Origin: a virus
DNA: 64,000 bases
IMG/VR virus record: IMGVR_UViG_3300017971_000013
Location: 39,596-103,595 of that record
Strand: one strand, 5' to 3'
Within the stretch, counting starts at the first letter, position 1. Every line of letters begins with the position of its first letter. The notes below the pieces were generated by a model that worked only from the letters and a program-made list of their open reading frames with translations, had not been told where the DNA came from and made no database searches. The position numbers and the translations under genes were made by a program. This document shows positions 2,728 through 57,199 of the stretch, in pieces.

Positions 2728-4830
2728 ATGACTAGGTACTTTTTTGCAGGAGGGGACTCTAAGCCCGCAATTAAGTGTATGCTCGCATGTGACGTCAAAA
2801 ATATTCTGTTTAGCTTCTTCTATATACAGAAAAAGCGGCAGAAGAATTTTGATGCCCTTGTAAGTCAGCTGACAGAACTCAAGGAAAAAGGTGGTTATAC
2901 TTTTATCTTAGATTCTGGTGGCTTTACTTATAAAGATGTAGCGGGCCGAGGGTTTCAAACTGTTAGAAGTGAAGCAGGCGCTGTACGGACAAAGAAGCTA
3001 GATCCATATGCGTATTTAGAGGAATACACCAAATTTCTTATACAATATGGACACTTGTTTGATGTCTGTGCAGAGTTTGAACCGGACGAAGTGTTCGGCG
3101 GCGTAGATATTGTAGATGAGAACAGAGAGAAGATGCTAGCCACCTTCGAGAAGCACGGTGTAGAGGTTAACCTCATGCCTGTGTTTGATTCTTTCATAAG
3201 GGATCTAGATACGTGGGAAGAGTGGTGTGAAGATTCTAGATACAAGCATCTTGGTTTTGTGGGAAATGATATACGTCTTGCTTCTCGTCTTGTAAATAAG
3301 GCGCATAGACACGGCAAAAAAGTACATGGTTTCGCGCAGACTAAGATTGAGGATCTTCAAAGAGCTAAGTTTGATACTGTGGATTCTACAGGATGGATTT
3401 CTGGGCAGAAATATGGAGAGGTGTTCATATTTCAACGTGGTAAATGGACCAGACTAAACGCTACCCAAAAGAATAAGCGCAAGCTTTATAAGAACTATTT
3501 CAAGGCAATTGGGATAGATTGGGACCTCATCAATAGAGATGATCCCAATGAGTTACTTAAAGCCTCATGTTTGTCCTGGAAGCGTTTGTTTGATCACTTT
3601 GAGGCTAGGTCTATATTAGAGACAGCCAGTACCACCTCCTTAAAGAGAGCAGCACCAACAAAGCCTGTTCGTGGGGTGTTGATGCAGTTAGCTGAGCTTG
3701 GTGTAGACAAAAAACCACGGGAGCGTAATGTCCCAAAGAAGACAATCAAAGTGGGGGGTAAGATACGGCTTATGTCGACGAAAGCGACAGCGTTCGACGC
3801 ACAGAAGATCATTGCACGGGCGTTGGAGTTGTCGGAACTCCCTGTCGAGGAAGCCTGGGAAAAAGCCTTTGGGCGAGATGAGCAAGAAATAACTGTTGAT
3901 GAGCAAGAGATGAACGCGTTGTTTAAGCCTAAAAGAGCCAGAGGGTTTAGCCCAGAATGGTATGCGTTGCTAGACCAACAACGTCAGGTAGAAGAGGCAT
4001 TAGAAAAAGTCTCGGCAGACAATGAAAAAAGAAATAATAACTGGGACAAGTTCCTGGTGACTGAGCCTCTTATGTCCGAAAACGAGGTAATTTCGCAGGG
4101 TTCCATTTTAGGTGACACTACAGACTACACAAATATTAAACAAATTCAGGGAAATACCGCAGAAATGGCGGATGGATCGCACGTTGCTAAAGACAACGTT
4201 GTTAATAGCAACAGAGAAACTTTAGACAGTCAAAACGACCCTACAAAGCTCACATCATCGACGATTCGTAAAAAATTGTCCGTCCATGCGTGTCATACGT
4301 GCGCAGTTTCTACCGATTGCTCTTATTATCAACCTGGCTACTTGTGTTATTACAAACCAGCATTTCAAACGTTGCAAAGTCGCAATGTTAAAGATGTGAT
4401 GCAGGCGTTAGAGTATATAACGGACAAGAACCTAGAGAGAACGATGCGCGCGTTTTTGATGGAAGAGATACAGATGGGGGGTCAAGTAGACCCTCAAGCA
4501 TCAAATGTGTCTCAGTTAGCTTTCGGGCAGTTAGAGAAGCTAGCTTCACTGAAACATGCAACCAGACCCGAATCTTTCAAGGTAACACTCGAAGGACAAG
4601 GTGAGTCAGCGTCTATCTTGACCCAACTTTTATCGGGCGCAAAACAGCCCGAAGAGCCAAAACAGTTAGAAGCGCAAGAGACTAATATGATAGATGTGAC
4701 ACCTAAGAAGAAAGAGAGAATAGAAGAACGCGCGATAAGAGAGTCAAAACAGCAAGGTAACAGACAAGATGAATATGACATTACTGAATTAGCTACGATA
4801 CAGAAAATGTTTGTTCCTGATCAACAGTAG
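2728..4830 (+). CDS. TGT/DpdA-like transglycosylase (7-deazaguanine insertion) fused to a long C-terminal region with a Cys4 cluster
   Basis: N-terminal ~290 aa has ILDSGGFT, MPVF, KVHGF and FDTVDSTGW motifs typical of phage TGT-superfamily TIM barrels; queC and queD lie in the same window; C-terminus has CxxC-x4-C-x8-C. Confidence 0.65.
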   Translation: MTRYFFAGGDSKPAIKCMLACDVKNILFSFFYIQKKRQKNFDALVSQLTELKEKGGYTFILDSGGFTYKDVAGRGFQTVRSEAGAVRTKKLDPYAYLEEYTKFLIQYGHLFDVCAEFEPDEVFGGVDIVDENREKMLATFEKHGVEVNLMPVFDSFIRDLDTWEEWCEDSRYKHLGFVGNDIRLASRLVNKAHRHGKKVHGFAQTKIEDLQRAKFDTVDSTGWISGQKYGEVFIFQRGKWTRLNATQKNKRKLYKNYFKAIGIDWDLINRDDPNELLKASCLSWKRLFDHFEARSILETASTTSLKRAAPTKPVRGVLMQLAELGVDKKPRERNVPKKTIKVGGKIRLMSTKATAFDAQKIIARALELSELPVEEAWEKAFGRDEQEITVDEQEMNALFKPKRARGFSPEWYALLDQQRQVEEALEKVSADNEKRNNNWDKFLVTEPLMSENEVISQGSILGDTTDYTNIKQIQGNTAEMADGSHVAKDNVVNSNRETLDSQNDPTKLTSSTIRKKLSVHACHTCAVSTDCSYYQPGYLCYYKPAFQTLQSRNVKDVMQALEYITDKNLERTMRAFLMEEIQMGGQVDPQASNVSQLAFGQLEKLASLKHATRPESFKVTLEGQGESASILTQLLSGAKQPEEPKQLEAQETNMIDVTPKKKERIEERAIRESKQQGNRQDEYDITELATIQKMFVPDQQ

Positions 4831-7235: not shown

Positions 7236-7272
7236 AACGGTTTTAGGGCGGTTCGATTCCGCCCTTAGCGTA
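7228..7272 (+). ncRNA. tRNA-like minihelix (acceptor-like stem + T-arm, no anticodon arm)
   Basis: TACGCTAA/TTAGCGTA stem enclosing GGGCGG-TTCGATT-CCGCCC. Confidence 0.5.
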
Positions 7273-15389: not shown

Positions 15390-16505
15390 ATGAAGGAGAT
15401 ATATTTACGCATATTTACATGTGATTTTTGTTCGTGTATTTTTGGGATAGAATGGTCAAAGACAGATTCCCCTTGTGCAATAATCTGTCCGGTCTGCACA
15501 GAATATGTGTGGGAAGAAAACGACGAGGACGATATGGATCATCTTTCAGATACACAAGTTGAAGAAGCTGTAAGTTATAATAAAAAACAAAGTTATTCAC
15601 CTAGTACTTGGATGGAAATTCAAGAAATGGTAGTTTGTCACGCTGATGGACTCGTTGGGCCAGATACTGTTCAGCACGTAGCATTTTGGCAATATAGACA
15701 AGATATAGGATTGACTATAGATGGAAAAGTAGGGCCAGCTACCCTAAAAGAAATGGGTATTGAATACATTCCTGATGATGAATATGACATTAGAAACATG
15801 GTTAAAACCTACCCACATAGGTGTTTTGGTATAGATGTTTCTGACTATCAAGGTGATCTTTCTGCGGAAGATTTTCAACTTATGAAAGATGCGGGAGTAG
15901 TCTTTGTCATTTTTAAGGCTACTGAAGGTAGAACTTGGAAATCAAAATATTTTCATAACAATATTGTGAGAGCAAAAGGTGTCGGTCTTTTTGTATCTGC
16001 TTATCATTTGACGCGTTTGACAGACTCTGCCGTTACTGAGGTGATGAACCCAGAAGGAGGAGCAGAGAACTTTGTTAATTTTATAGGTGATAAATGGTCA
16101 CTGCTTGATTTTACTTGTTGGAACGATTTGGAATACAAACAGGTAGAACAGATGGTTAATTTGTGCAGCGCAGCTGAAGCAAATGATTGGTTGATGCGGT
16201 GGATGGTACGATTCAAAGAAATGGTTAGCCATAAAATTGAATTTTACCTGTCTCATAGAACAGCAAAGCTGTTTAGTTCGTATTGTGAACCTTTTAATAC
16301 AACAGAAGGGTGGTGGGCGTATTACGATTCTGCTACTTGGGGAGATCCACCAAAAATGTATCCTCCTAATTGGAATAAATGGATGTTTAGGCAGATAACA
16401 GGCTCGGGTAAGGTTCCTGGCATTCATGGGGATTGTGACATAAACTATTTTGCCGGAGATACACAAGACTTTTTGGACTTTATAACCAATGAGCAAAGAG
16501 GATAG
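15390..16505 (+). CDS. Endolysin: N-terminal zinc ribbon + peptidoglycan-binding domain + GH25 muramidase
   Basis: DGLVGPDT and DGKVGPATL (PG_binding_1); GIDVSDYQG, KATEG, DLE and VPGIHGDCDINYF (GH25). Confidence 0.85.
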   Translation: MKEIYLRIFTCDFCSCIFGIEWSKTDSPCAIICPVCTEYVWEENDEDDMDHLSDTQVEEAVSYNKKQSYSPSTWMEIQEMVVCHADGLVGPDTVQHVAFWQYRQDIGLTIDGKVGPATLKEMGIEYIPDDEYDIRNMVKTYPHRCFGIDVSDYQGDLSAEDFQLMKDAGVVFVIFKATEGRTWKSKYFHNNIVRAKGVGLFVSAYHLTRLTDSAVTEVMNPEGGAENFVNFIGDKWSLLDFTCWNDLEYKQVEQMVNLCSAAEANDWLMRWMVRFKEMVSHKIEFYLSHRTAKLFSSYCEPFNTTEGWWAYYDSATWGDPPKMYPPNWNKWMFRQITGSGKVPGIHGDCDINYFAGDTQDFLDFITNEQRG

Positions 16506-23646: not shown

Positions 23647-25505
23647 TGCCTTTCTCTGACGAGGAAATTCGCGTAAAATCTGATAAACTTTCTTTGCAGA
23701 TTTCAGGAGGCGCGGATCAGGCTCCAGGAAAAAAGTTCTGGTATAATGAGGAGCATCCTTGGTCTCCTATTGTTGTACCTGATAACATTTGGTCTGATTT
23801 TGCTACAATACCTCCAGCTACAACGCCAGCTCAGGCAGATGCAAATGCTATAGCTAATCCCACTATTATTGAAAGGTTGGAAACCAGGTTAACTAACAAT
23901 CCAACTAGCAATAATAGGCAATATGAAGCTAGACAAACTTATGGTGATCGGACCAGTGATATTTATGTCAACTGGATCCAGCCTGCTCTCGTTAGAGATA
24001 GCGGTGCGCCCTCAAACGGATACATCATCCGACTGTATAATGGTGATCCCTCTGGAGGCGGTGTAGAGTTACCAACTACTTGGAATGGTGGTCCAGATGG
24101 TGCCCCCTCTTGGGAATGGAATTACTCTACTGGTGTTTTAAAGGTTTCTACTGATCAATCTGCAAACTATGGTGCTATAGATGCTGGCGCCGGTTTATGG
24201 GTTCAGGGTTTCAGATATATCGGGCCTACAGGAGGAGGTGCTTCCACTGTTGCAAGCACACCTAAAAGACTTGGCGCAATTGATATAGATGGCGCAGTTA
24301 ACCTAGTAAATACAGATTATGTTTTGTACACTGTTCCAGCAGGGTCTTATGCATTATCTGCCTTTGTTGTTGTGTGTAACAGAAACGCGGCGTTGGCAAC
24401 AACTGTAAGAATTGCACATTCTGTGGCTGGGCCACTAAACAATGAAGATTACATATTTTATGATGTAGATGTGCTAGCTTACGAATCTAAATTCATTTCT
24501 ATACCAGGCATGTCTGCTGGTGATTATATTACAGTAAGAGCAGATACTTCTGATACGGATTTTATGATTCGTGGTTTTGAAGATGTTGGAACTGCGCCTG
24601 TTCAACGCATAGCAGCGCTTGCCACAGATATAGGAACCAGAAATACAGATCTCCAAGCCTACTTAAGTACACAGGATTCTAGTGATGTTAAATACTACAT
24701 TTGTAATCATAATGGTGCTTTAGCTACGCGCGTGCGCGTGGCGCATATAGATGATGTTGTTGTTGGTAGTTTACTACCAGAGGACTACGAACTATATGAG
24801 GAAGAATTAGTAGCCACTGAATCTAGAGGATATTGTACTGGTCTTCAAATGTCTGCTAATCAGACTTTGATGTTTCGCGCAGATGAAGCAGATGTGAACA
24901 TTGTTGTTTATTGTTCATTTGGAGGAACGGGTGGAGGCGGTGGAGGAGGTGTTTCTTTATGGCAAGAAATAGGTACCGACTTAAGTCCTCTAACTCCAGG
25001 TAACAATGTGACTGTTCCTGGCGCAAGGCTGACTCTAGGTGATGATGTAGATCCTCAATTCTTTGAATCCATCACACAAGCTTCAGGCCAAGCTACCCAG
25101 GTTGGTGACAGCCAATATGAACGTGTTGTCTGTTATGGTGAGACTTTTGATGCGGCCTGGACAGTTCTCTATCCAGGCGGCAATGCCGCTAACAATTTGA
25201 CTTTAGTTGCAGGTTCATCTTATACTTGCAGGGTTCTTGTAACTGGAGTTCAGTACGGCGGCATTTTAGGGTCTCAGTATGATACTTGGGCATATGAATT
25301 GATAGGAAACATTGTGCTGGCCGGAGGTGTCACTACAATGCATTCTTATATCTCAAATACAATATTTGAAGCAGATAATACCTTTGATGTGCAATTAGTT
25401 GCAGATGACATCAATGATGCAATTCAGGTCCAGGTTAGAGGCGGTGTTAGTAAGTCCGTGCGATGGACCGCCGTTGTTGAACTTATAAATAGTTATGGTG
25501 GCTAG
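23646..25505 (+). CDS. Multi-domain tail-fibre/adhesin-like protein
   Basis: Gly-rich linkers; two tandem beta-sandwich repeats (VCNRNAALATTVRIAH / ICNHNGALATRVRVAH); C-terminal VRWTAVVE domain. Confidence 0.7.
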   Translation: MPFSDEEIRVKSDKLSLQISGGADQAPGKKFWYNEEHPWSPIVVPDNIWSDFATIPPATTPAQADANAIANPTIIERLETRLTNNPTSNNRQYEARQTYGDRTSDIYVNWIQPALVRDSGAPSNGYIIRLYNGDPSGGGVELPTTWNGGPDGAPSWEWNYSTGVLKVSTDQSANYGAIDAGAGLWVQGFRYIGPTGGGASTVASTPKRLGAIDIDGAVNLVNTDYVLYTVPAGSYALSAFVVVCNRNAALATTVRIAHSVAGPLNNEDYIFYDVDVLAYESKFISIPGMSAGDYITVRADTSDTDFMIRGFEDVGTAPVQRIAALATDIGTRNTDLQAYLSTQDSSDVKYYICNHNGALATRVRVAHIDDVVVGSLLPEDYELYEEELVATESRGYCTGLQMSANQTLMFRADEADVNIVVYCSFGGTGGGGGGGVSLWQEIGTDLSPLTPGNNVTVPGARLTLGDDVDPQFFESITQASGQATQVGDSQYERVVCYGETFDAAWTVLYPGGNAANNLTLVAGSSYTCRVLVTGVQYGGILGSQYDTWAYELIGNIVLAGGVTTMHSYISNTIFEADNTFDVQLVADDINDAIQVQVRGGVSKSVRWTAVVELINSYGG

Positions 25506-26745
25506 TATGCAAAACAATGTCCAAGGAAAGGTCGTTGGCTTGGGCGGTAATTTGCCGAGCCACGTAAGACTGGAACCTTCTTTTCATGATCATTGTAACT
25601 GCAGGGGTTGGACTCCTGCAGCCCTTGGGTCTGGAAATAGTTTCCTTAATAGGTTTTGGAATAGGGCAAACACTGATTGGAACAATCATTGGAAATATAA
25701 ATGGTGGGAATTCTTTCCTCAAGGAGGTACTGTAGATCCATTTGGTCCAAGAAGGTTTGATACCACTGTTGAACTTGCTAATTACCTAGCTGATAACCTA
25801 CCGATGCTTGCTGGCAATTATGATGATGGTGTGAATGTGCGGTGTTATGATGCCGTAGATTATGCTGATTCATTTCCGCGCATAAGAATTGTTCGCAATT
25901 CTATTATAGGCTCGGTTAGAGGCAGGCGTAGATGGTTAGTAGGCTTTAGCTCCGAAACTTGTGGTATTTCTTCGGGCTTTAATGCCCCTAACTATTATGC
26001 AGGTGGCTTTCCTGGTAACACGGGTCGTTTGTTTGTTCAGAAATATACAGGCTTTTTACCAGGGACAAATAACGATGACGTTGTGTGGGCTACGAGGAAG
26101 AAACGCACTATGTGGTCGTTCCCTAAGGTAGGTAATCTGATTCAAGACTTACCCCCTGGAGCAAGAAGGGCTGCGTGGAATACAAACACTTTAAATTGGG
26201 TGACTCCAGCTCCTCAGCTTAGTTACGCATTTCAAAATCCTTTTCTGTGGTATGAAAACTACTGGGGCGGGGTTTTGGCTGTTGGTTATCCTAGTGACTT
26301 AGGTCAATCTTACAGAGAGGCTGTTCTTAATGGACCAGCAGCACTTGTGTTTCCTGTAGTCTCTGGGGATCATGTCGCTTTTGCTGTTTATCCAATGGGT
26401 TTTGATACTTTTTACACGGATAGACTAGGTACAGACGAAGAGCTTATCACAAAAGCAACCTTTAAAAGACAATCAACTCCAAGATACAAAGTTCTAACAT
26501 CTTCAAGCGTCGATCGTGATGTTGAAATGTTCCACACCGGAGACGGTGGAGGAAATCATTTTATGCAGTCAACGGATTGGCCAAACTCAAGCAATGATGG
26601 TATACGTGTACCTCATAAGGTGTATGTAGCTAAACGTAACACTGTGACAGGTGTGCGTTCAAAATGGGTTAAATTAGGAATCTTTCATCATCGTGTTCCT
26701 CATTCATCCCATAGGTTTGATCCAGCCTATAAATGGACAGGATAA
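25495..26745 (+). CDS. Unknown protein, paralogue A (followed by 3x30-nt hairpin array A)
   Basis: 416-aa W/R-rich ORF; aligns by eye with the C-terminal ~400 aa of 27275-28987; alternative start 25507. Confidence 0.8.
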   Translation: MVASMQNNVQGKVVGLGGNLPSHVRLEPSFHDHCNCRGWTPAALGSGNSFLNRFWNRANTDWNNHWKYKWWEFFPQGGTVDPFGPRRFDTTVELANYLADNLPMLAGNYDDGVNVRCYDAVDYADSFPRIRIVRNSIIGSVRGRRRWLVGFSSETCGISSGFNAPNYYAGGFPGNTGRLFVQKYTGFLPGTNNDDVVWATRKKRTMWSFPKVGNLIQDLPPGARRAAWNTNTLNWVTPAPQLSYAFQNPFLWYENYWGGVLAVGYPSDLGQSYREAVLNGPAALVFPVVSGDHVAFAVYPMGFDTFYTDRLGTDEELITKATFKRQSTPRYKVLTSSSVDRDVEMFHTGDGGGNHFMQSTDWPNSSNDGIRVPHKVYVAKRNTVTGVRSKWVKLGIFHHRVPHSSHRFDPAYKWTG

Positions 26746-26788
26746 GATTCAGATGTTGCCAACTGGCAATGTTTGATTCCCCGTGAGA

Positions 26789-26878
26789 GGGGCTGCTATG
26801 TAGTAATGCAGCCCCAACGGGGTCACTTTGTAGTAATGTGGCCCCAAAGGGGCTGCCTTGTAGTAGTGCAGCCCCAAT
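26789..26878 (+). repeat. Array A: three tandem 30-nt hairpin repeats (candidate structured RNA)
   Basis: GGGGCTGC-TATGTAGTAAT-GCAGCCCC-AAC / GGGGTCAC-TTTGTAGTAAT-GTGGCCCC-AAA / GGGGCTGC-CTTGTAGTAGT-GCAGCCCC-AAT; compensatory stem changes. Confidence 0.9.
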
Positions 26879-26927
26879 GAGATGCCTCTAAAGGAGAGCC
26901 AGCCAGGTTCGATTCCTGGGCATCTCA
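26879..26927 (+). ncRNA. Anticodon-less tRNA-like element
   Basis: 7-bp acceptor stem GAGATGC/GCATCTC + A; D-like arm CTCT-AAAGG-AGAG; T-arm CCAGG-TTCGATT-CCTGG; only CCAG where the anticodon arm would be. Confidence 0.7.
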
Positions 26928-26954
26928 CTTTTGTGTTTCACTAAGAGGAATGTA

Positions 26955-27278
26955 ATGAAAGAATTACAGGTTAGAGGCACTACTGGTCAAAGACACTCTG
27001 GTGGGCAGCAAAACACTACGTCTGTATCCACCTTGACTGTGGCAGATTATGATTTAACTGATATGCGTTACGGGGGAGAATTCCTCCTTACGCCAGACGG
27101 TTCTTCTACTTTGTTAGAGTTGCTTCAGGCCGAAGCTCCTTGGGATTTGATGGAGACTTATACACTGGAGGAGCCTCCAGAAGATAATCAGTTAAGTTTA
27201 GCTGTGGTACCTTCGGCCGGTGCCACTGTTCGTGTTTTGTTGACTGCACGAATTGATTGTCAGGATCCTGTAACATGA
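26955..27278 (+). CDS. Small protein, paralogue of 37992-38348 (fibre-associated/chaperone candidate)
   Basis: GAGGA RBS; GGEFLLTPDGSSTLLELLQ...VPSAGATVRV...DCQD vs GGDVVLDADGTKNILELIQ...VPVSGSKVVV...TCEE. Confidence 0.7.
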   Translation: MKELQVRGTTGQRHSGGQQNTTSVSTLTVADYDLTDMRYGGEFLLTPDGSSTLLELLQAEAPWDLMETYTLEEPPEDNQLSLAVVPSAGATVRVLLTARIDCQDPVT

Positions 27279-28987
27279 TTGAAAGCACAAAACCTAATAT
27301 AGATTTTGCGGCAAGAGACACAGCTTTTTTGACTATGTCAGCGCCGCAGAATGCTAATCTAGCTGTCGGAGATCATGTTGAATTTAACTTAGTTGAAGGA
27401 AACATCCCGTTATCTGTAGGAGCCGGACAGGCTAACGGTGTTTTGACTTTAACTAACAGCAAAAAATATAAACTAGAGGCCAATGTCTCTTGTGCGTTCG
27501 GCGCAACAAATGATTCGTGCTCATTTGTCTGGTATGACACAACAAACAACACTGAGATAGGGAAAAGGTCTGATTGTTTCTCTGTTTCTGGTTCAGCTAC
27601 AGAGAGTTCTGTCAGCACCGTGCGCGCGGTGGTAACGCCAGGGGCAGACATAAACGTAGAGCTTAGAATTATCGCTGTCAGCGGTACTGTTACACTCATT
27701 TCTAACTCCTTTGCAAATGGGTGGGTAGAGAGCTTAGAGGCGTATATAAATGTAGTGCCAACTTTTGATGTTCATGTTCCCACTATAGAATATGACACGT
27801 TCACTGTTGGCATACACGACTCTACAAACTGGTCTGGTTCTGCTTTTGATTCTTTGGCGGATCGTCAAGCGGCAGATATAAACAGAAATTTCTCTAACTA
27901 CACACAATGTTTTTGGCGCTTGTATGAAAGAGAGGTAGGCACTAACCTTTTGGTTAATTACTGGGAAGGTTTGCAATTTGCCTCTATTGCCGCTCTTTAC
28001 ACCTTCATAAGAAATAACTGTGTAGAAAGTGGGACGGCTCCAGGGACACCAGCCAATGATATCATCGCTACTGCTTATGATATCATTGATGACACGGTAC
28101 AGCGCGTTAACCGTATTTATGGCCTGAATACTTTTCTTGCTATATTGAAAGGTCGGCGCAGGTATTTGTCATCCAACTTTGATGAATGTGTTTTAGACGA
28201 AAATCTGTGTTCGTGGGGACAGCTTGGTAACTGGATTGATGATCTGAATGCCAACGCGCCTGGGTGGCTTAATCCACTTTCGTCTTGGGCTCCAGGTTCT
28301 AATGAAGAGAATATTGTTTGGTTTTCAAGGAACATAAAGAAACTTTATGGGCTTCCAAACATCTCTACTGTGTTTATGAATCTGACTGCTCTAACAAATA
28401 GACGTGTTTGGGATTGGGGTGCGTCTGCTGTGGTCGCAGCCCCTCTTGGTGGTTATCAGGGCACAGGGCCGAGCGGAGAGCCTAAGATTTATTGTTCGTT
28501 GGATATGCCTACTCAAACGTGGACGTTTTTTGACACTACGTTGAGAGATCATTACGTACAGCAGTTTAACGGAGATAAATCTATTATAGTGCTTTATCAA
28601 CTGTCCAGTACTGCCGATCCGAACAAAAGAGCTGTCTTAGCAAAGCCTCTTGGTATAGATAGGGTTTCGATTCCTTGGTTTGATTCTTCTGTGTATGACT
28701 TATACGCTCTGTATAATCGTAAGAATCAGACACACAATATTCGCGGTCCTTTGACTAGTACCTTCGAAGATGTTATAGCTAATAAGAAGTGGGTGTTGAA
28801 AGATCAGTGGATGCATCCTTCTAAGTTCGATACTAAAGCTTCTGCAAGAATGGTTGGTACTCAAGAGTACACAACTAGATTCTTTTTGCGGCATAAATCT
28901 ACAGGGCGTATCTCAAAGCCTAGCAGCGCCAGAATAGTATGTGCCCAGAGGCACAGAGACGCTATGTTTAAATTTGAGGTACGTTAA
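27275..28987 (+). CDS. Unknown protein, paralogue B: N-terminal C1q/BclA-like beta domain + domain shared with 25495-26745
   Basis: ATGA-coupled start 27275; N-terminal VEFN..GNI...GVLTL...YKLEANVS jelly-roll pattern; followed by hairpin array B. Confidence 0.8.
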   Translation: MIESTKPNIDFAARDTAFLTMSAPQNANLAVGDHVEFNLVEGNIPLSVGAGQANGVLTLTNSKKYKLEANVSCAFGATNDSCSFVWYDTTNNTEIGKRSDCFSVSGSATESSVSTVRAVVTPGADINVELRIIAVSGTVTLISNSFANGWVESLEAYINVVPTFDVHVPTIEYDTFTVGIHDSTNWSGSAFDSLADRQAADINRNFSNYTQCFWRLYEREVGTNLLVNYWEGLQFASIAALYTFIRNNCVESGTAPGTPANDIIATAYDIIDDTVQRVNRIYGLNTFLAILKGRRRYLSSNFDECVLDENLCSWGQLGNWIDDLNANAPGWLNPLSSWAPGSNEENIVWFSRNIKKLYGLPNISTVFMNLTALTNRRVWDWGASAVVAAPLGGYQGTGPSGEPKIYCSLDMPTQTWTFFDTTLRDHYVQQFNGDKSIIVLYQLSSTADPNKRAVLAKPLGIDRVSIPWFDSSVYDLYALYNRKNQTHNIRGPLTSTFEDVIANKKWVLKDQWMHPSKFDTKASARMVGTQEYTTRFFLRHKSTGRISKPSSARIVCAQRHRDAMFKFEVR

Positions 28988-28999
28988 CAGTGTTTTGGC

Positions 29000-29089
29000 G
29001 GTTCGCTCGATTAAAGACGAACTGCGTTAGGTTCGCTCGATTAAAGACGAACCGTATTTGGCCCGCTCGATTAAAGACGGGCCACATAT
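29000..29089 (+). repeat. Array B: three tandem 30-nt hairpin repeats (candidate structured RNA)
   Basis: GGTTCG-CTCGATTAAAGA-CGAACT / GGTTCG-CTCGATTAAAGA-CGAACC / GGCCCG-CTCGATTAAAGA-CGGGCC; invariant 12-nt loop; double compensatory change TT/AA to CC/GG. Confidence 0.9.
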
Positions 29090-29092
29090 TCC

Positions 29093-29146
29093 AATAATTC
29101 CCCTCTTGTGTAACTTTCTCCTACATGAGAGGGGAATTATTATTTC
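29093..29146 (+). terminator. Long inverted repeat closing array B (terminator/processing hairpin)
   Basis: AATAATTCCCCTCT (29093-29106) / AGAGGGGAATTATT (29128-29141). Confidence 0.65.
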
Positions 29147-29219
29147 CTGCCCTTCTATCTGCTTGCTATTCCTATCCCTTGTAGATTCTTCTAGCTTTAT
29201 AAAAAAATTGAGGGTTAAT

Positions 29220-32009
29220 ATGTCTAACAACACTGGAAGTATAACTTCAAGCGAGTTATTTGGTGCTCCTGCTTCTGGCTCTTCATCTTCCTCTATTTGG
29301 GATGCTGATGCGGATACAGGCGTTGATGTTGAGGCAACACCGGATAATGATACTATCTTTGGGTATACAAATGATGGCGCGGGAAATCCCTTAGCTCGGT
29401 TTTCCATCTCTCAGCCAGGCGAAGCATCCTTTGGACAGCTTGATGGTCGGGTGGGGACCGAGTTTTTTAATGTCTTGGGTGGGGATACTTTAGGCTTAAG
29501 CGCTGGTTTGCTGTTAGATGCTGTGGATGGTGCAGGCGGCGGATACGATGCTTTTTTAGCCATTGATAGTGATTTAGCTGGTGGTGGTAGCTCCGCAGCC
29601 GTGATCTTAAGAAACAATGGCGGAAACTCTGTGGCTTGGACAGCGCCATCTGTCGCTCCAGGTTCCGACTTGTTTTTTGCTCTACCAAATACGCAAGGCG
29701 CAAATGGCCAGGTATTAGCTAGTAATGGTGTTGACAGCACTTATTGGACTACTGTTGCCACTTCAGGTATTTGGGACACTGATGGTGATACAGGTATAGA
29801 TTGTGAACGTACTCCAGACGTAGACGAGATTTCTTTTTATACAGGAGATCCGTCTGTCGAACGAATGCGTTTGGGTGGTAACGGTTTACGTATTGAGCCT
29901 GGTTCTGTGTCTGGGACTGCTACAGAGATTTTAGAGATACAAGGTAGTTCAATTGGCGGAGATATTCGTGCCAAGGCAACAAATATTTTAGGTCTGCCAA
30001 CTCAACCAGGCACAGCTGGTTTAGATATGGATGTTTCTGGGCTGGTTGGTTCTATTTACATGTCTCGTAATGATGGCTTGTGGCTAGAATCTGATGGGAC
30101 AGCCTTAGGACGTCAGGCGCCTATTCATATGTCTGTAGATTCTACAGAGATTGTGACTGTTAATTTTGATTCCGGTTCTGTTCCTGGTTATTTGGGCTTG
30201 AGTCAATATGGTGCTGGTGCAGGTGAGAAGTCAGAGCTAAGGTTTTTTCTGGGAGATGTTAGCTCTAATTATGTTGGTTTTAAGGCGCCGGATGCAATAC
30301 CTACTTCTGAGATATGGACATTACCAGCGGCGGATGGAACACCTGGTCAGGTTTTATCTACCAATGGCGCAAATGTTTTATCTTGGGTTGGAGGCGCAGC
30401 AGATTCAGATTGGTCTGGAGCAGCTACGGGTATGTTATATCCGACCAACATTACAGATAATGTAGCTATAGGAAACGCGACGCCAACATATACAAATCGT
30501 GGTTTGTGGGTAGAAAATGCTGGAGCCTATGGAGGTTCAGCACAGTTAAGAGGAAGCGCAGCTAGGCTCGAACTTTTTTCTTCTGGTAATGCTGCTGGTG
30601 CCAGAGCCATGGATATTGTTGGCTATTCTGACGCTTATCATATACGGCTGTTAGATGATGGCTTTAGCACACAATCTGCTGGCATTTTGTTGTCGGCATC
30701 ATCTTTTATTTTAAATGACAACTATGCTGATGTAGATACTCAGATTTTTGGAAACTCTGGTTTGGTTCCTCGTGTGCATGCTGATGGCGCGACAAAGACA
30801 GTTGGTATAAATACTGCTACTCCTGGATCTCAGCTACATGTGACAGACGATACTGCTTGTGGTGTTTTGGTCTCTGCTTTTGGAAATGGAGCAGGAGATT
30901 ATCCTTTTTGGTTTATGTATCGTGGCAGGAATGTTGAGGCCGCGCCCAATTCTGTGCTGACAGGAGATATTCTTGGCAGCGCCGATTTTAGAGCTTTTGA
31001 CGGTACAGGAGCAGGAGACGCTGGTTATATTGCTATGTACGCCAATGAGGATTGGTCTACTGGTAATACTGGATCCAGGTTAGTTTTAGCTACTACAGAA
31101 GATGCCAATGCTACTTCTGTTGAGAGAGTTCAGATAGATGATGATGGTGTTGTTCAGGTTTTAACTAATTATATAGATGTGCATCCGAAAGGAACGGCAG
31201 CTGGTGATGGTGGGACGGTACGTTTTAGAGAATTAGCAGCAAGCGGCACTGATTATGTAGGGCTTAGTGGGCCAGATGCAGCAACAGCAACACAAGACTA
31301 TAAACTACCGCAGAACTATCCTTCTGTGGCAGGAGATGCTCTCACGTGTGATGGTTCAGGAAATATGGGGTGGGCAGCAAGAGACTTGCGATGGTCTGCA
31401 ACTGCTGCTGGAACCTGGGCATCTACTAGCACATTTACTGTCACTGATAACGCCACCAACCAATCAATCTTTGCAACTGGGCGTCCAATCAGATTTAGAC
31501 AAGCTGCAGGTACTTGGCGTTATGCAATTATTACTGACTACACAACAGGGACAATAACTGTTGCTGGTCATCCGATTACAAATGCTGCCGAAATGACAGA
31601 AATGGAATGGGGTAACTTTGATCGTGTTCAGACCCTTTCTTTTGCTATTAATGGCGAATTTGCGGATGGCGCAAGCACTTCTCTGATTGAAGATGATTTA
31701 TTTACTTTCTTTAAATGGACGATGGCTAAGGCTTATTGTGTACTCATTAGCCATCGTGTGACAGACGTGGATACAGGCGCATCGCAGCCGCGTGTTAACT
31801 TAAGAGTGAACGGTCAGCCTGTTTCAACTTCTAATACTAACGCAGGACGAGATGTTTCTACTTCGTGGGTAGATACTGTTGTAGACATCGCTGTAGCTAA
31901 TTATGATATTAACTGGGGAGAAGCTATAGAGATTTCTACTGATGCTAACGGTACAAATAATGATGCCAGAAGTCTGTCACTACAGGCCACCTTTGTATTT
32001 GAGGATTAA
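29220..32009 (+). CDS. Long tail fibre protein
   Basis: Start moved to ATG 29220; repeated WD.D.DTG.D.E.TPD.D.I.FY and LP..G..GQVL..NG...W fibre motifs; VGINTATP. Confidence 0.85.
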   Translation: MSNNTGSITSSELFGAPASGSSSSSIWDADADTGVDVEATPDNDTIFGYTNDGAGNPLARFSISQPGEASFGQLDGRVGTEFFNVLGGDTLGLSAGLLLDAVDGAGGGYDAFLAIDSDLAGGGSSAAVILRNNGGNSVAWTAPSVAPGSDLFFALPNTQGANGQVLASNGVDSTYWTTVATSGIWDTDGDTGIDCERTPDVDEISFYTGDPSVERMRLGGNGLRIEPGSVSGTATEILEIQGSSIGGDIRAKATNILGLPTQPGTAGLDMDVSGLVGSIYMSRNDGLWLESDGTALGRQAPIHMSVDSTEIVTVNFDSGSVPGYLGLSQYGAGAGEKSELRFFLGDVSSNYVGFKAPDAIPTSEIWTLPAADGTPGQVLSTNGANVLSWVGGAADSDWSGAATGMLYPTNITDNVAIGNATPTYTNRGLWVENAGAYGGSAQLRGSAARLELFSSGNAAGARAMDIVGYSDAYHIRLLDDGFSTQSAGILLSASSFILNDNYADVDTQIFGNSGLVPRVHADGATKTVGINTATPGSQLHVTDDTACGVLVSAFGNGAGDYPFWFMYRGRNVEAAPNSVLTGDILGSADFRAFDGTGAGDAGYIAMYANEDWSTGNTGSRLVLATTEDANATSVERVQIDDDGVVQVLTNYIDVHPKGTAAGDGGTVRFRELAASGTDYVGLSGPDAATATQDYKLPQNYPSVAGDALTCDGSGNMGWAARDLRWSATAAGTWASTSTFTVTDNATNQSIFATGRPIRFRQAAGTWRYAIITDYTTGTITVAGHPITNAAEMTEMEWGNFDRVQTLSFAINGEFADGASTSLIEDDLFTFFKWTMAKAYCVLISHRVTDVDTGASQPRVNLRVNGQPVSTSNTNAGRDVSTSWVDTVVDIAVANYDINWGEAIEISTDANGTNNDARSLSLQATFVFED

Positions 32010-50091: not shown

Positions 50092-51078
50092 ATGCCAGGT
50101 GTAATTAACACTGCTGTTGCTACTGGAGCTGGCTATAATCAGCTAACTGGTGCCATTCGCGATGTTTTTTCGGCCGAGATTTTTGTTCGCGCGCTTCCGC
50201 TTCTGCGCTTTGACCAGTTCGCTCTTTACCGATCCGAACTAGGTGTTCAGCCCGGGCACACCATTCAGATGCCCCAGCTGCACAACATCAAACGCGGCAA
50301 GATGATGACAGAGAAAGATGAGCTTGAGACCCAGGCCATGGCTCTGTCGACCCTGCAGATTACCGTGCATGAGTATGGTAATGCTGTTGGTTTTTCTGAG
50401 TTTCTTTTACAGACCAGCTTTTTCGATCAGATGACTTCGGCATCTATCGTTCTGGGTCGTGACTTTGCTGTCGTTTTAGACACAGAGCTTCGTACCTCGA
50501 TGCTGGCGGGTGCTGTTAATGTTGTTTATGCTAACGGCAAAACAGCGCGTACGGCTCTCGTTTCTGCAGACGTTCTGACTACTCAGGAAGTTAAGGACGC
50601 TGTTGAGGTCTTGGAAACTAATAACACACCTCGTTGGAATGGTGACCACTATGTGTGCATCATTCATCCTCATAGTGCTCGTCACTTAATGGATGCCAAT
50701 CAATGGATCGAGGCTAGCTTGTACGGTAACGTCGAGCAGATTTATCGCGCTGAAATTGGGCGTTATCATGATGTTCGTTTTATCTCGACGACGGTCATGA
50801 ACAATGGTGCCAATCCTACGGTAGATCCAAACACTGGTGACTACGTTGATATCGGTTTCGATCCTGCGCTGCAGAACGGCGTTGCCGGTAATCAGACGGT
50901 GGTTTATCAGTCTGTTATGTTTGGTGAGTTCTCTTTAGGCCATGCTGTTTCTTTGCCGGTCGAGCTGCGTGATAACGGAATCGAAGATTTCGGTCGCCGC
51001 CATGCTTTGGCTTGGTATTCAATTTTTGGCCAGGATGTTTTAGAGACGGACAATATCGTGGTTATTGAAACTGCGTAA
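50092..51078 (+). CDS. Major capsid protein (N4-gp56 family-like)
   Basis: PLLRFDQFA...ELGVQPG..I, EYGNAV, YVCIIHP, EIGRY.DVRFI and DFGRRHALAWY. Confidence 0.92.
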   Translation: MPGVINTAVATGAGYNQLTGAIRDVFSAEIFVRALPLLRFDQFALYRSELGVQPGHTIQMPQLHNIKRGKMMTEKDELETQAMALSTLQITVHEYGNAVGFSEFLLQTSFFDQMTSASIVLGRDFAVVLDTELRTSMLAGAVNVVYANGKTARTALVSADVLTTQEVKDAVEVLETNNTPRWNGDHYVCIIHPHSARHLMDANQWIEASLYGNVEQIYRAEIGRYHDVRFISTTVMNNGANPTVDPNTGDYVDIGFDPALQNGVAGNQTVVYQSVMFGEFSLGHAVSLPVELRDNGIEDFGRRHALAWYSIFGQDVLETDNIVVIETA

Positions 51079-54760: not shown

Positions 54761-57199
54761 ATGCCTGATGCTCCTGGGGTAAGAACTTTTGAGGTTAACC
54801 GAGCAGGTTTCATTATTAATCAGAGACCTGTTGGGAGACCCTTGTTTTTTGTTAGGGCTACCTCTGGTCCTGCTGGAGTTCCAGTCTTGATTACAGGCTG
54901 GGATGACTATCGTGCAATTTTCGGTGAAAGAATTAGTGGCGATTACTCCTATGATGAGGTGTATCAATTCTTTCGCCTTGGTATCGAATGCTACATTGTT
55001 CGTGTTATCGATGGTACGGCAGCTATTGCTACTGGGACATTGAATACTCTTGGTGTTGCTACTAACGGCACTCTGACTTCTACCATCGATCCTTTATTTC
55101 CTGTTGCTTTAGCTCCAGGGGATAATATCGAGTTTGACTCTGACCTGCTTGGTGGTTCTACTGCTGTTACGGTTGCTGCTACGCAAGCCGCCGACATTAC
55201 GGTAGAAAATTCAGGCGCATTTGTTGCTCCTGCTGTTGGCGATACCATGGTGTTCGAAATGAACGGCGATGGTGTTTCTCAGCAGGTTACTTTTGCAGGT
55301 CCTCCTGTGACGATGCAGGATGTTGTCGACCAGATTAATGCGCAGATTTATGGTGCCGTTGCGACATTCGTCGATGCGGCCGTCTCTGTTTCTGGTAATG
55401 ACGAAATTCATATTGTGTCTTCTTTGTTAGGCACTGATTCCGAGGTTGACTACACAGCAGATACCTTAACTGGTTCAATGACAGCGTCGCCTTTAAATGA
55501 CGCTCCTGGCGTTGGTGATTTTGCAGACTATTCTGCCGTCACTTATGCGGAGTTTAAAGCTGTTGTTGAAGCTGCCCTGGGTGCTGTGAATGTCACTGTT
55601 AACCCGGCTGGCGCAGCTTCTTGGTCTATTCAGACCAATACAGCTGGTGCTGGGGGTTGGATTCAATGTACCGTGACTGGTGCTATGGGTCCGAAGATTG
55701 GTATGTTAGCGGGTGCCGCTGTTGCCGGTGGTACGTTGACTTTGCCGCTACCTACCATGGACGTTGAAGCCTCTTATGAAGGTGACTTCGCCAATACTTA
55801 CGATGTTATTGCAACGCGCCGTGATTTGTACTCTGGTCAGGTTTCAGCAGATCTTCCTGTTGCTGCCGCACGTCAGTTTAACATGGTGTCTACGCATAAT
55901 GTTGCTGTTGGTGATGTTCTTCGTGTGCGTGATTCAGCTGCGCCTACGAACTACTTCTATTGTACGGTTAGAAAGATCTCTGGTCCAATTGTTTATACAG
56001 AGGCATCTTTCACTCCGCCTGTGCTAATTCCAGCCGCTACTTCTGAGGTTCATAAGCTTGTCTTTGACCTTGAGGTTGATGACCAGGGCGACGTTGTTCA
56101 CAATTGGGTTGGTCTCTCAATGAGTCCTACTTCGCCATCTTATTGTGAATCCGCTGTAAATAGCACTGACCCAAATCGTAAGATTCAGATTAGTATTATT
56201 TCTCCTGCTCCTGCTATTGATAATCGCCCTGATGGAACGATTCAGCTTGCGGGCGGAGATGACGGCGGTATTCCATTAGCGGCTGATTACACTGCGTTAT
56301 GGCCGTCTCTTGAGAAGTACAAAGATTTCGACGAAGCCTATAACCCTGCTATTATGTCTTATGACAATGCATCGCAGGTGAGCTGGGCGCGTTCTCTTGA
56401 AGGTGAGGCAGCGGACCGTAAAGACTTTTTAGGTATTGTCATTCCTCATGAAGTAGGTGGTAATCCTTGGACGTCTGCACAGCTTCTTAAGGAATGGAAA
56501 GAAGGCTCTTCTGGTGGTGGACCTGCGCTGTTCTCTACTTTTGTAGCCCTTTACTATCCTTGGGTTAAGGTTGAAGATCCTATCTCTAGCGCTGCTGGTG
56601 CGTTGGTTACTGTGCCTTGTGGTGGTTCTGTTTTAGGTGCTTTTCAGTATAATGACAGAGAAGCTACTTTTGGTAAGGCTCCAGCTAATAGGACTGGTAT
56701 TCTTCCTAATGCTCTTGGCATTACGGCTGAATACTCTGACCCAGAACGTGGAGAACTGAACAACGCTGGCATTTGTATCATCAAGAAGGTTCGTAATCGC
56801 GGCATTAGAATCTTTGGTGCACGTACTGCTGGTCTTGGCGATTTTATGTATGTGAATATCCGACGTGGATTTATTCGTATGCGTAAAGACATTGATGAGG
56901 GGCTGCAGGATGCTCCTTTTGAGAACAATGACGCCAGAACTCGCGCCGAGATTACAAGGGTTATTGAGAACTACCTTTATAACCGCTGGAAAGAAGGCGT
57001 CCTTATGGGTGAAAACTCAGAGGATGCTTACTATGTAATCTGCGATGAAACTAATAATCCTCCGTCTGTCGCTGAATCTGGGAAACTGATTGTTCGTGTT
57101 GGTTTGGCTATGGCGACTCCTGGTGAGTTCATCGAGGTTTATTTTGAGAGAGACCGACGTGCTCTGAATGAAGAACTTGGTCTTCAGCAGCTTACATAA
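54761..57199 (+). CDS. Tail sheath protein
   Basis: APGVRTFEV, ALYYPWVKV, KAPAN, GIRIFGART, YVNIRR, FENND and CDETNNPP. Confidence 0.96.
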   Translation: MPDAPGVRTFEVNRAGFIINQRPVGRPLFFVRATSGPAGVPVLITGWDDYRAIFGERISGDYSYDEVYQFFRLGIECYIVRVIDGTAAIATGTLNTLGVATNGTLTSTIDPLFPVALAPGDNIEFDSDLLGGSTAVTVAATQAADITVENSGAFVAPAVGDTMVFEMNGDGVSQQVTFAGPPVTMQDVVDQINAQIYGAVATFVDAAVSVSGNDEIHIVSSLLGTDSEVDYTADTLTGSMTASPLNDAPGVGDFADYSAVTYAEFKAVVEAALGAVNVTVNPAGAASWSIQTNTAGAGGWIQCTVTGAMGPKIGMLAGAAVAGGTLTLPLPTMDVEASYEGDFANTYDVIATRRDLYSGQVSADLPVAAARQFNMVSTHNVAVGDVLRVRDSAAPTNYFYCTVRKISGPIVYTEASFTPPVLIPAATSEVHKLVFDLEVDDQGDVVHNWVGLSMSPTSPSYCESAVNSTDPNRKIQISIISPAPAIDNRPDGTIQLAGGDDGGIPLAADYTALWPSLEKYKDFDEAYNPAIMSYDNASQVSWARSLEGEAADRKDFLGIVIPHEVGGNPWTSAQLLKEWKEGSSGGGPALFSTFVALYYPWVKVEDPISSAAGALVTVPCGGSVLGAFQYNDREATFGKAPANRTGILPNALGITAEYSDPERGELNNAGICIIKKVRNRGIRIFGARTAGLGDFMYVNIRRGFIRMRKDIDEGLQDAPFENNDARTRAEITRVIENYLYNRWKEGVLMGENSEDAYYVICDETNNPPSVAESGKLIVRVGLAMATPGEFIEVYFERDRRALNEELGLQQLT

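Follow-up and report, generated by a model that had tools for sequence, protein, structure and literature searches.

A candidate RNA element of three tandem hairpins beside putative tail-fibre genes in uncultured phages

Locus and arrays

Here, we describe two arrays of three tandem hairpins, designated A and B, in the genome of a myovirus-like phage (portal, 46516-48531; capsid-like protein, 50092-51078; sheath, 54761-57199; GH25 lysin, 15390-16505), together with their relatives in other phages. The genome is an IMG/VR virus record of 103,595 bp with direct terminal repeats, and the window, meaning the whole 64-kb stretch that was analysed, comprises its bases 39596-103595; positions below are those of the window unless given as genome positions. 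All long ORFs in the window lie on the plus strand. Among the sequencing runs, matching contigs were found in three samples, all of DNA, from marine sediment or seawater; these contigs are identical over 25400-29400 and therefore carry no micro-variation information. Each array follows a gene whose product (416 and 570 aa, respectively) ends in a common C-terminal domain of about 400 aa, here called famX, and neighbouring genes in the window encode Laminin_G_3 and DUF2345-like domains. The features of the locus, all on the plus strand, are as follows.

25495-26745, plus: upstream gene, 416 aa, divergent famX member (famX profile E 3e-68; stop codon TAA at 26743-26745)
26750-26775, plus: additional hairpin (11-bp stem, 4-nt loop) in the gap from stop codon to array A (minimum free energy [MFE] fold of 26746-26960)
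26789-26815, plus: array A hairpin 1, 8-bp stem and 11-nt loop; -16.4 kcal/mol
26819-26845, plus: array A hairpin 2, with two double compensatory changes and one U-G wobble; -13.7 kcal/mol
26849-26875, plus: array A hairpin 3, 8-bp stem, 3' bulged U, 2-bp inner helix and 6-nt apical loop; -18.0 kcal/mol
26879-26927, plus: mini-tRNA-like element of 49 nt, followed by a U-rich tract (T-arm motif scan and fold)
26955-27278, plus: 107-aa ORF that begins 27 nt past the mini-tRNA-like element and runs into the start of the next famX gene
27275-28987, plus: second famX gene, 570 aa (famX profile E 2.5e-136)
28998-29084, plus: array B, sister triple hairpin with a 30-nt period (covariance model match, 63.8 bits)
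29093-29141, plus: terminator-like 20-bp hairpin and U-rich tract after array B (fold and terminator scan)

Repeat finding divides array A into three head-to-tail 30-nt copies (26788-26817, 26818-26847 and 26848-26877), the second and third being 77% and 90% identical to the first. A degenerate form of its hairpin pattern matches three sites in the 64-kb window, where 0.26 would be expected (at least three in 0/100 shuffles), with no further occurrence in the whole 103,595-bp genome. All three units fold as hairpins, the outcome of the RNA folding check suggested in a preliminary description of this DNA; folded singly they reach z scores of -3.3 to -4.4, the fold of hairpin 3 accounts for 0.91 of the ensemble, and the 215-nt intergenic region 26746-26960 folds with z = -7.7. 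The repeat copies, shuffles and single-unit folds thus bear out the array of covarying 8-bp stems reported in that description. Relative to units 1 and 3, unit 2 carries G-C to A-U and U-A to C-G, both double compensatory, as well as C-G to U-G, which confirms the earlier claim that its stem had changed with pairing kept and one U-G. On the minus strand this wobble becomes an A-C mismatch, and hairpin 2 falls to -8.6 kcal/mol. The loop core is invariant across the three units. The preliminary description had also proposed an inner 2-bp extension that differs between units 2 and 3, a 3' bulged U and a 6-nt loop, and direct reading of the sequence agrees: the inner pairs are U-A and U-A in unit 2 and C-G and U-A in unit 3, with only the first inner pair in unit 1, although ViennaRNA predicts the inner helix in unit 3 only.

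The distance of 43 nt between the stop codon and array A is unusual because the extra 11-bp hairpin occupies the gap. In the reading frame of the upstream gene, 44 codons without a stop span array A (26746-26880), with a TGA just after, and would specify a 10-residue peptide repeat if read; this is probably chance, as other arrays do not share it. A coding or read-through extension was rejected for the arrays as a whole, since only about 4/12 are open throughout and several meet a stop within 0-13 codons.

The mini-tRNA-like element consists of an acceptor-type stem, a small D-like hairpin and a T-arm with a canonical T-loop, with no anticodon arm, and occupies the place that a terminator-like hairpin holds after other arrays. 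A tRNA-Sec match at 26878-26927 is weak and sub-threshold (17.3 bits, E 5.2); ARAGORN called no tRNA in the window, and Rfam none at the element. In run X3, a sediment-metagenome contig aligned to the T-arm part only (26898-26930) and continued as an apparent ordinary tRNA of another organism, which shows the tRNA-likeness of this segment. T-arm-like stem-loops with canonical T-loops also lie in intergenic DNA at genome positions 34121, 34751, 35205, 36075 and 46842 (window position 7247), and may mark sites for processing by RNase P or RNase Z. There is no promoter room after the mini-tRNA-like element, so array A is probably intercistronic. The 107-aa ORF has no Pfam or PHROG match. Array B lies 10 nt past the stop codon of the 570-aa ORF; its stems covary, its linkers have diverged and its three 12-nt loops are identical.

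The famX family and its arrays in other phages

The 416-aa and 570-aa proteins are weakly related paralogues, with 20% identity over 214 aa (BLASTP E 4e-7). For the 416-aa protein, Pfam and PHROG gave no match, and a word-indexed search of 5.8 billion proteins returned no homologue but itself, while a profile search recovers family members; the same word-indexed search yields a single relative (38% identity) for the 570-aa protein, whose homologues in other phages are 38-40% identical. A five-member famX profile matched 349 cluster representatives among 1.84 billion proteins (E <= 1e-3). The domain corresponds to no Pfam family and has no recognisable RNA-binding domain. Mtd_N is present in 5/36 members, several members match tail-fibre or tail-spike PHROGs, and one long member carries Laminin_G_3. 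An AlphaFold model (pLDDT 75.6, the domain mostly >90) gave no Foldseek match in the PDB at E <= 1e-3, BFVD matches of TM <= 0.16 and nothing in the ESM Atlas; its best VIA Z score was 6.5, to generic Ig-like sandwiches only. Altogether, famX has the appearance of a C-terminal module, so far uncharacterised, in proteins of the tail-fibre type. Because tail fibres normally form trimers, the famX protein is presumed by analogy to be trimeric too.

Relatives were found by scanning IMG/VR with a famX alignment, and further scans added six more records; genes were located by profile and hmmsearch. Among 8 uncultured phage records, drawn from the family of 349 representatives, 14 famX genes have readable 3' flanks, and each is followed by three hairpins with a period of 30-32 nt. 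The records are as follows.

G000 (this genome): two famX genes with arrays directly after the stop codon
G001 (212-kb record, locus L004): two famX genes with arrays
G002: four tandem famX genes, each with its own array
G003: one famX gene with an array
L035 record: two famX genes with arrays
G005: one famX gene with an array, with A+T-rich loops
G006: one famX gene with an array
G004 (312-kb record, locus L036): a 15th gene, its array displaced behind a 117-aa ORF

The number of hairpins is exactly three in 15/15 arrays, and 15/15 lie on the coding strand. Hairpin 1 starts 4-19 nt past the stop codon in 13 arrays and 43 nt past it in array A, which is also atypical in its 8-bp stems and 11-nt loops. 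Array A nevertheless has the features that define the element, namely triple sense-strand hairpins, a famX stop codon upstream, conserved loops and covarying stems. The G001 homologue (40% identical) is followed, 12 nt past its stop codon, by a 30-nt hairpin in three copies, whose stems covary and whose 12-nt loop is common to all, then by a terminator-like hairpin; the second G001 member, 2 kb downstream, has an array of 3 x 31-32 nt. At most loci a further hairpin follows the array and is terminator-like in several; no tRNA-like element follows any of the other 14 arrays, and in most of them a plain hairpin does. In G002, famX genes and arrays alternate with nothing else between them. The downstream genes vary by locus (the 107-aa ORF, a 929-aa ORF or another famX gene), with no Pfam or PHROG family in those tested.

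In G004, the 117-aa ORF between the famX stop codon and the array (L036:4920-5272) has two CxxC pairs, and a second, weaker and degenerate triple hairpin lies directly after the first (L036:5297-5517); this arrangement may be what is left of a famX cassette that was lost or rearranged. Two 15-nt tandem repeat arrays at L008:2270-2337 and 3188-3255 (IMGVR_UViG_3300033145_001546), which are not hairpins, have a 15-nt string in common with the loop and 3' arm of an array B unit, and a near-identical leader of about 40 nt precedes each.

Pattern and sequence searches gave the following. The exact array A pattern was not found in IMG/VR, and the array B loop pattern occurred there at 24 loci, mostly simple or coding repeats and none with a triple-hairpin array. 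Scans of metagenome contigs and genome contigs found nothing, nor did blastn and tblastn against 50,697 cultured-phage records. Rfam 15 gave nothing at the gathering threshold in the window and chance-level matches only at E up to 10 in 26700-29200, and no paper describing the element was found in the literature.

Selection on pairing, loops and bulge

The hairpins have a G+C-rich stem of 6-8 bp, usually a single 3' bulged U, and loops of 11-13 nt. Pairing was counted over the six loop-proximal pairs in 12 arrays from 7 phages (36 hairpins, 216 cells, 72 pair columns). Every cell pairs (216/216), 8 as G-U and 0 as A-C; in 19/72 pair columns both partners have changed and still pair, in 2 a single partner has changed, by way of G-U, and 0 are broken. 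The arrays L032-3, L035-1 and L036-1 consist of three nearly identical copies each and have no covariation information of their own. In the covariance model (CM) alignment, which is fitted to the model and so leans towards it, 86% of cells pair, compared with 63% in shuffles (0/500 reach this value) and 29-43% with slid partners, and changes affect both sides in 19/21 pairs. Within arrays, 17/143 loop columns are variable, against 34/60 columns of the linkers, taken as the five bases after the stem (Fisher p = 1e-10), and 40/144 columns of the stems (p = 0.001). From the pair-column and variable-column counts, pairing is selected, and loop sequence is selected more than stem sequence. The earlier proposal of selection on pairing and loop sequence, made for array A, now extends across the 12 arrays.

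Loops are kept identical across the three hairpins of an array and differ between arrays. Recurrent features are a stem starting GG and a pyrimidine at loop position 1 that pairs with the penultimate purine; this first inner pair is C-G or U-A in most units and covaries (13 related arrays). A U stands directly before the 3' arm in 12/14 arrays read, which is the bulged U first seen in array A.

A covariance model, R1, was built from 13 arrays. In the window, R1 detects arrays A and B and nothing else; in the complete 212-kb record G001 it detects just the two arrays linked to famX, and in 1.29 Mb of five more records just the known arrays; no sense-strand match occurs elsewhere at E <= 0.01 in about 1.6 Mb of these phages. 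Two arrays are missed by R1, the fourth of G002 and the degenerate second array of L036, both found by eye and folding. In G000 and G001, TRF found no further array with such a period. Similarity of loops is needed to tell arrays from chance, because a crude detector of hairpin triples gives about 2.4 chance matches per shuffled genome. On the plus strand, arrays B and A score 63.8 and 39.0 bits, versus 22.2 and 15.6 on the minus strand; the score of array A corresponds to an E of about 1e-6, R1 having been built from arrays that include it.

Proposed function

The asymmetry between G-U and A-C, the gap between plus- and minus-strand CM scores and the constant gene orientation point to sense RNA as the acting form, and on this sequence evidence the element very probably works as RNA in the famX 3' UTR or intercistronic region. 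The strand asymmetry alone leaves some room for a DNA hairpin on the coding strand, because G-T is tolerated in folded single-stranded DNA. An element like the attC sites of integrons, which carry extrahelical bases, with the folded single strand marking the boundary of a fibre-gene cassette for recombination or exchange, would suit the resemblance of tandem famX genes with their own arrays to a cassette series (four in G002), the keeping of structure while sequence varies, the bulged base and the uncoupling of loop type from protein identity. Such a DNA-level role is nonetheless rather improbable: the loci examined have no associated recombinase and lack attC core motifs, each array consists of three short hairpins in place of a single long imperfect one, and the shared orientation and the closeness to the stop codon fit an mRNA feature better.

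Within mRNA, the arrays might serve as a passive 3'-end module that blocks 3'-to-5' exonuclease or makes polymerase pause before the terminator, stabilising the message with no specific ligand. Intercistronic REP hairpins and terminator hairpins act as passive mRNA stabilisers, the stems of the arrays are G+C-rich and stable, and the arrays sit between a stop codon and a further, in several loci terminator-like, hairpin. For array A, if RNase P or RNase Z were to cut at the mini-tRNA-like element, the three hairpins would come to lie at the mRNA 3' end, which they could protect. We consider a purely passive role unlikely, since it leaves unexplained why loops are conserved far beyond linkers and stems, why the bulged U and inner pair are near-invariant, why the count is three in every array, and why the element is restricted to one gene family in 1.6 Mb.

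The same placement recalls the nut and put sites of antitermination, at which hairpins enable read-through of a terminator, either by loading a factor onto polymerase or by a direct effect on it. The model here is cro-nutR-tR1 of phage lambda, which has the same order of gene, hairpin or hairpins, terminator-like hairpin and next gene, and the genes after array A, having no promoter room, need read-through. However, one antiterminator or polymerase surface should need one type of loop, and the loops of arrays A and B are unrelated in one phage; no boxA-like motif was noted, and the element is tied to one gene family instead of to promoter-proximal positions. An antitermination site is accordingly improbable.

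Several identical single-stranded loops ahead of a terminator-like hairpin would also befit a trans-acting small RNA or sponge derived from the 3' UTR, with the loops pairing with or titrating a host or phage RNA or a global RNA-binding protein; CsrB/RsmZ and the multi-loop small RNAs of Gram-positive bacteria are precedents. The loops of array B and of the second G001 array (L004-2) are alike at 10/12 positions while their stems differ, so this loop type recurs in another phage. Complementarity of the loops to their own translation initiation region, mRNA and downstream 250 nt is not above shuffled (z -0.9 to +2.1), however, and neither is that to other genome sites; there is no common GGA or other known binding motif, and the strict linkage to famX would be left without explanation, all of which makes this reading decidedly improbable.

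The preliminary description had likened the hairpins to protein sites such as those of MS2 or boxB and had further suggested that UGU in the loop is recognised by a tRNA-guanine transglycosylase (TGT), making the hairpins base-exchange substrates of the phage TGT/DpdA-like enzyme (2728-4830) or of the host TGT. All three array A loops do contain UGU, and the 2728-4830 protein matches PHROG 887, 'queuine tRNA-ribosyltransferase' (E 1e-40), with no Pfam match at 1e-3 and no PDB sequence match. UGU is not a feature of the family, however: among the 14 arrays read it occurs only in array A, in two units of L052 and in one unit of L004-1, and it is absent from most sister arrays, including array B of the same phage. 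The apical loop of array A has 6 nt (with the inner pairs) or 11 nt, not the 7 nt of the anticodon type, and the TGT-like gene lies 22 kb from the arrays, apparently unlinked to the module. Phage enzymes of the PHROG 887 type (DpdA-like) are described as acting on DNA. The TGT part of the earlier proposal is thus unsupported and very close to being discounted, whereas the protein-binding part stands as a fair working model for the loop and bulged base.

Overall, array A reads as one instance of a conserved, apparently undescribed RNA element that forms a module with famX genes, and a functional sense RNA coupled to famX is very probable. Three identical loops with a bulged base suggest a platform for three copies or subunits of a sequence-specific ligand, most likely a protein, and we give this reading about an even chance. 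A ligand that is specific to the module and encoded by the phage is simplest, because the element travels with famX across phages with local G+C of 0.30 to 0.67 and because famX genes and arrays alternate in G002; the simplest candidate is the famX fibre protein of the same mRNA, as the only constant one, but this identification is tentative and somewhat doubtful. Binding of famX to its own array might hold new chains together or exert feedback on the stability or translation of its own message. Protein identity does not correlate with loop identity (Mantel rho 0.16, p 0.2), and simple recognition by a cognate protein is argued against by array B and L004-2, the arrays with the most similar loops, which follow proteins only 22% identical. 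Three hairpins would match trimeric tail fibres. In the most specific form of the proposal, which we regard as quite unlikely, the mRNA would encode an assembly platform on which each loop binds one new fibre chain, gathering the homotrimer on its own message; array-specific loops could then keep co-expressed paralogous fibres from forming mixed trimers. We know of no phage precedent for an RNA-templated, cis-acting chaperone of oligomer assembly.

These results extend an observation on three repeats of a single phage to a conserved module of gene and RNA that recurs in other phages. The famX domain was seen only in uncultured phages, and a triple bulged hairpin is found in every readable 3' flank in the 8 records inspected. 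The covariation and exclusive gene linkage are as strong as is usually accepted for new classes of structured RNA, and a fixed set of three hairpins beside genes of a normally trimeric protein class yields a testable hypothesis on the control or assembly of receptor-binding proteins. Even if the arrays are only a regulatory or stabilising 3' UTR, they would still constitute a compact and portable RNA module, with loops specific to each array and of possible use in fibre engineering.

Comparison with known systems

Among the closest systems are the MS2 and PP7 operators and the lambdoid boxB/nut sites, which are also short hairpins with covarying pairs and a fixed bulge and loop sequence, the signature of a sequence-specific protein site; nutR is likewise placed between a stop codon and a terminator. 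Unlike these, the famX element always comprises three tandem copies with a period of 30-32 nt, has loops of 11-13 nt that differ between arrays of one phage, and is coupled to a tail-fibre-like gene family of DNA phages; in contrast to boxB/nut, it has neither a boxA motif nor a GNRA-like pentaloop.

Type III antitoxin RNAs (ToxI, CptI and TenpI) also have repeats in tandem, about 30-45 nt long, with a terminator behind them, and their processed units assemble with protein in a 3:3 triangular complex, a precedent for threefold RNA-protein assembly. Arrays of this type lie upstream of the gene for a ToxN/AbiQ-type endoribonuclease and fold as pseudoknots, whereas famX arrays have their constant partner upstream, variable genes downstream and plain bulged hairpins. 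A ToxIN-like toxin gene after the array was sought and rejected, the downstream genes being different from one another and without a Pfam or PHROG family in those tested. A pseudoknot unit was rejected as well: linkers are 3-8 nt long, no loop complementarity was seen, and the MFE folds of arrays A and B are plain hairpins.

REP/BIME sequences and 3' stabiliser stem-loops resemble the arrays as G+C-rich extragenic hairpins just past a stop codon that are able to protect mRNA, but REPs occur in hundreds of dispersed copies of common sequence, while famX arrays occur only after famX, with array-specific conserved loops and always in threes. For array A only, there is also a likeness to MALAT1/MEN-beta with mascRNA, in which a stable 3' structure adjoins a tRNA-like element that is a potential RNase P site; those are eukaryotic nuclear RNAs with a triple helix, and array A has three hairpins in a phage mRNA, with putative cleavage. 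Two further candidates were set aside. A CRISPR array does not agree with the lack of spacers, with hairpins that fill 24-27 of each 30 nt, or with the lack of an Rfam match, features that also tend to speak against an RNA anti-CRISPR mimic. Intrinsic terminators, with loops of 3-8 nt and an adjoining U tract, differ in that the array hairpins have loops of 11-13 nt and no U tract (one exception being hairpin 3 of L035-1, followed by a long T run), and the only hairpin flagged by the terminator scan is the separate one that follows array B.

The element thus fails the defining features of the MS2/PP7/boxB, type III antitoxin, REP-type and MALAT1-mascRNA systems. It may be classed as a cis-encoded, probably protein-binding mRNA hairpin element, and there is a chance that it is categorically new.
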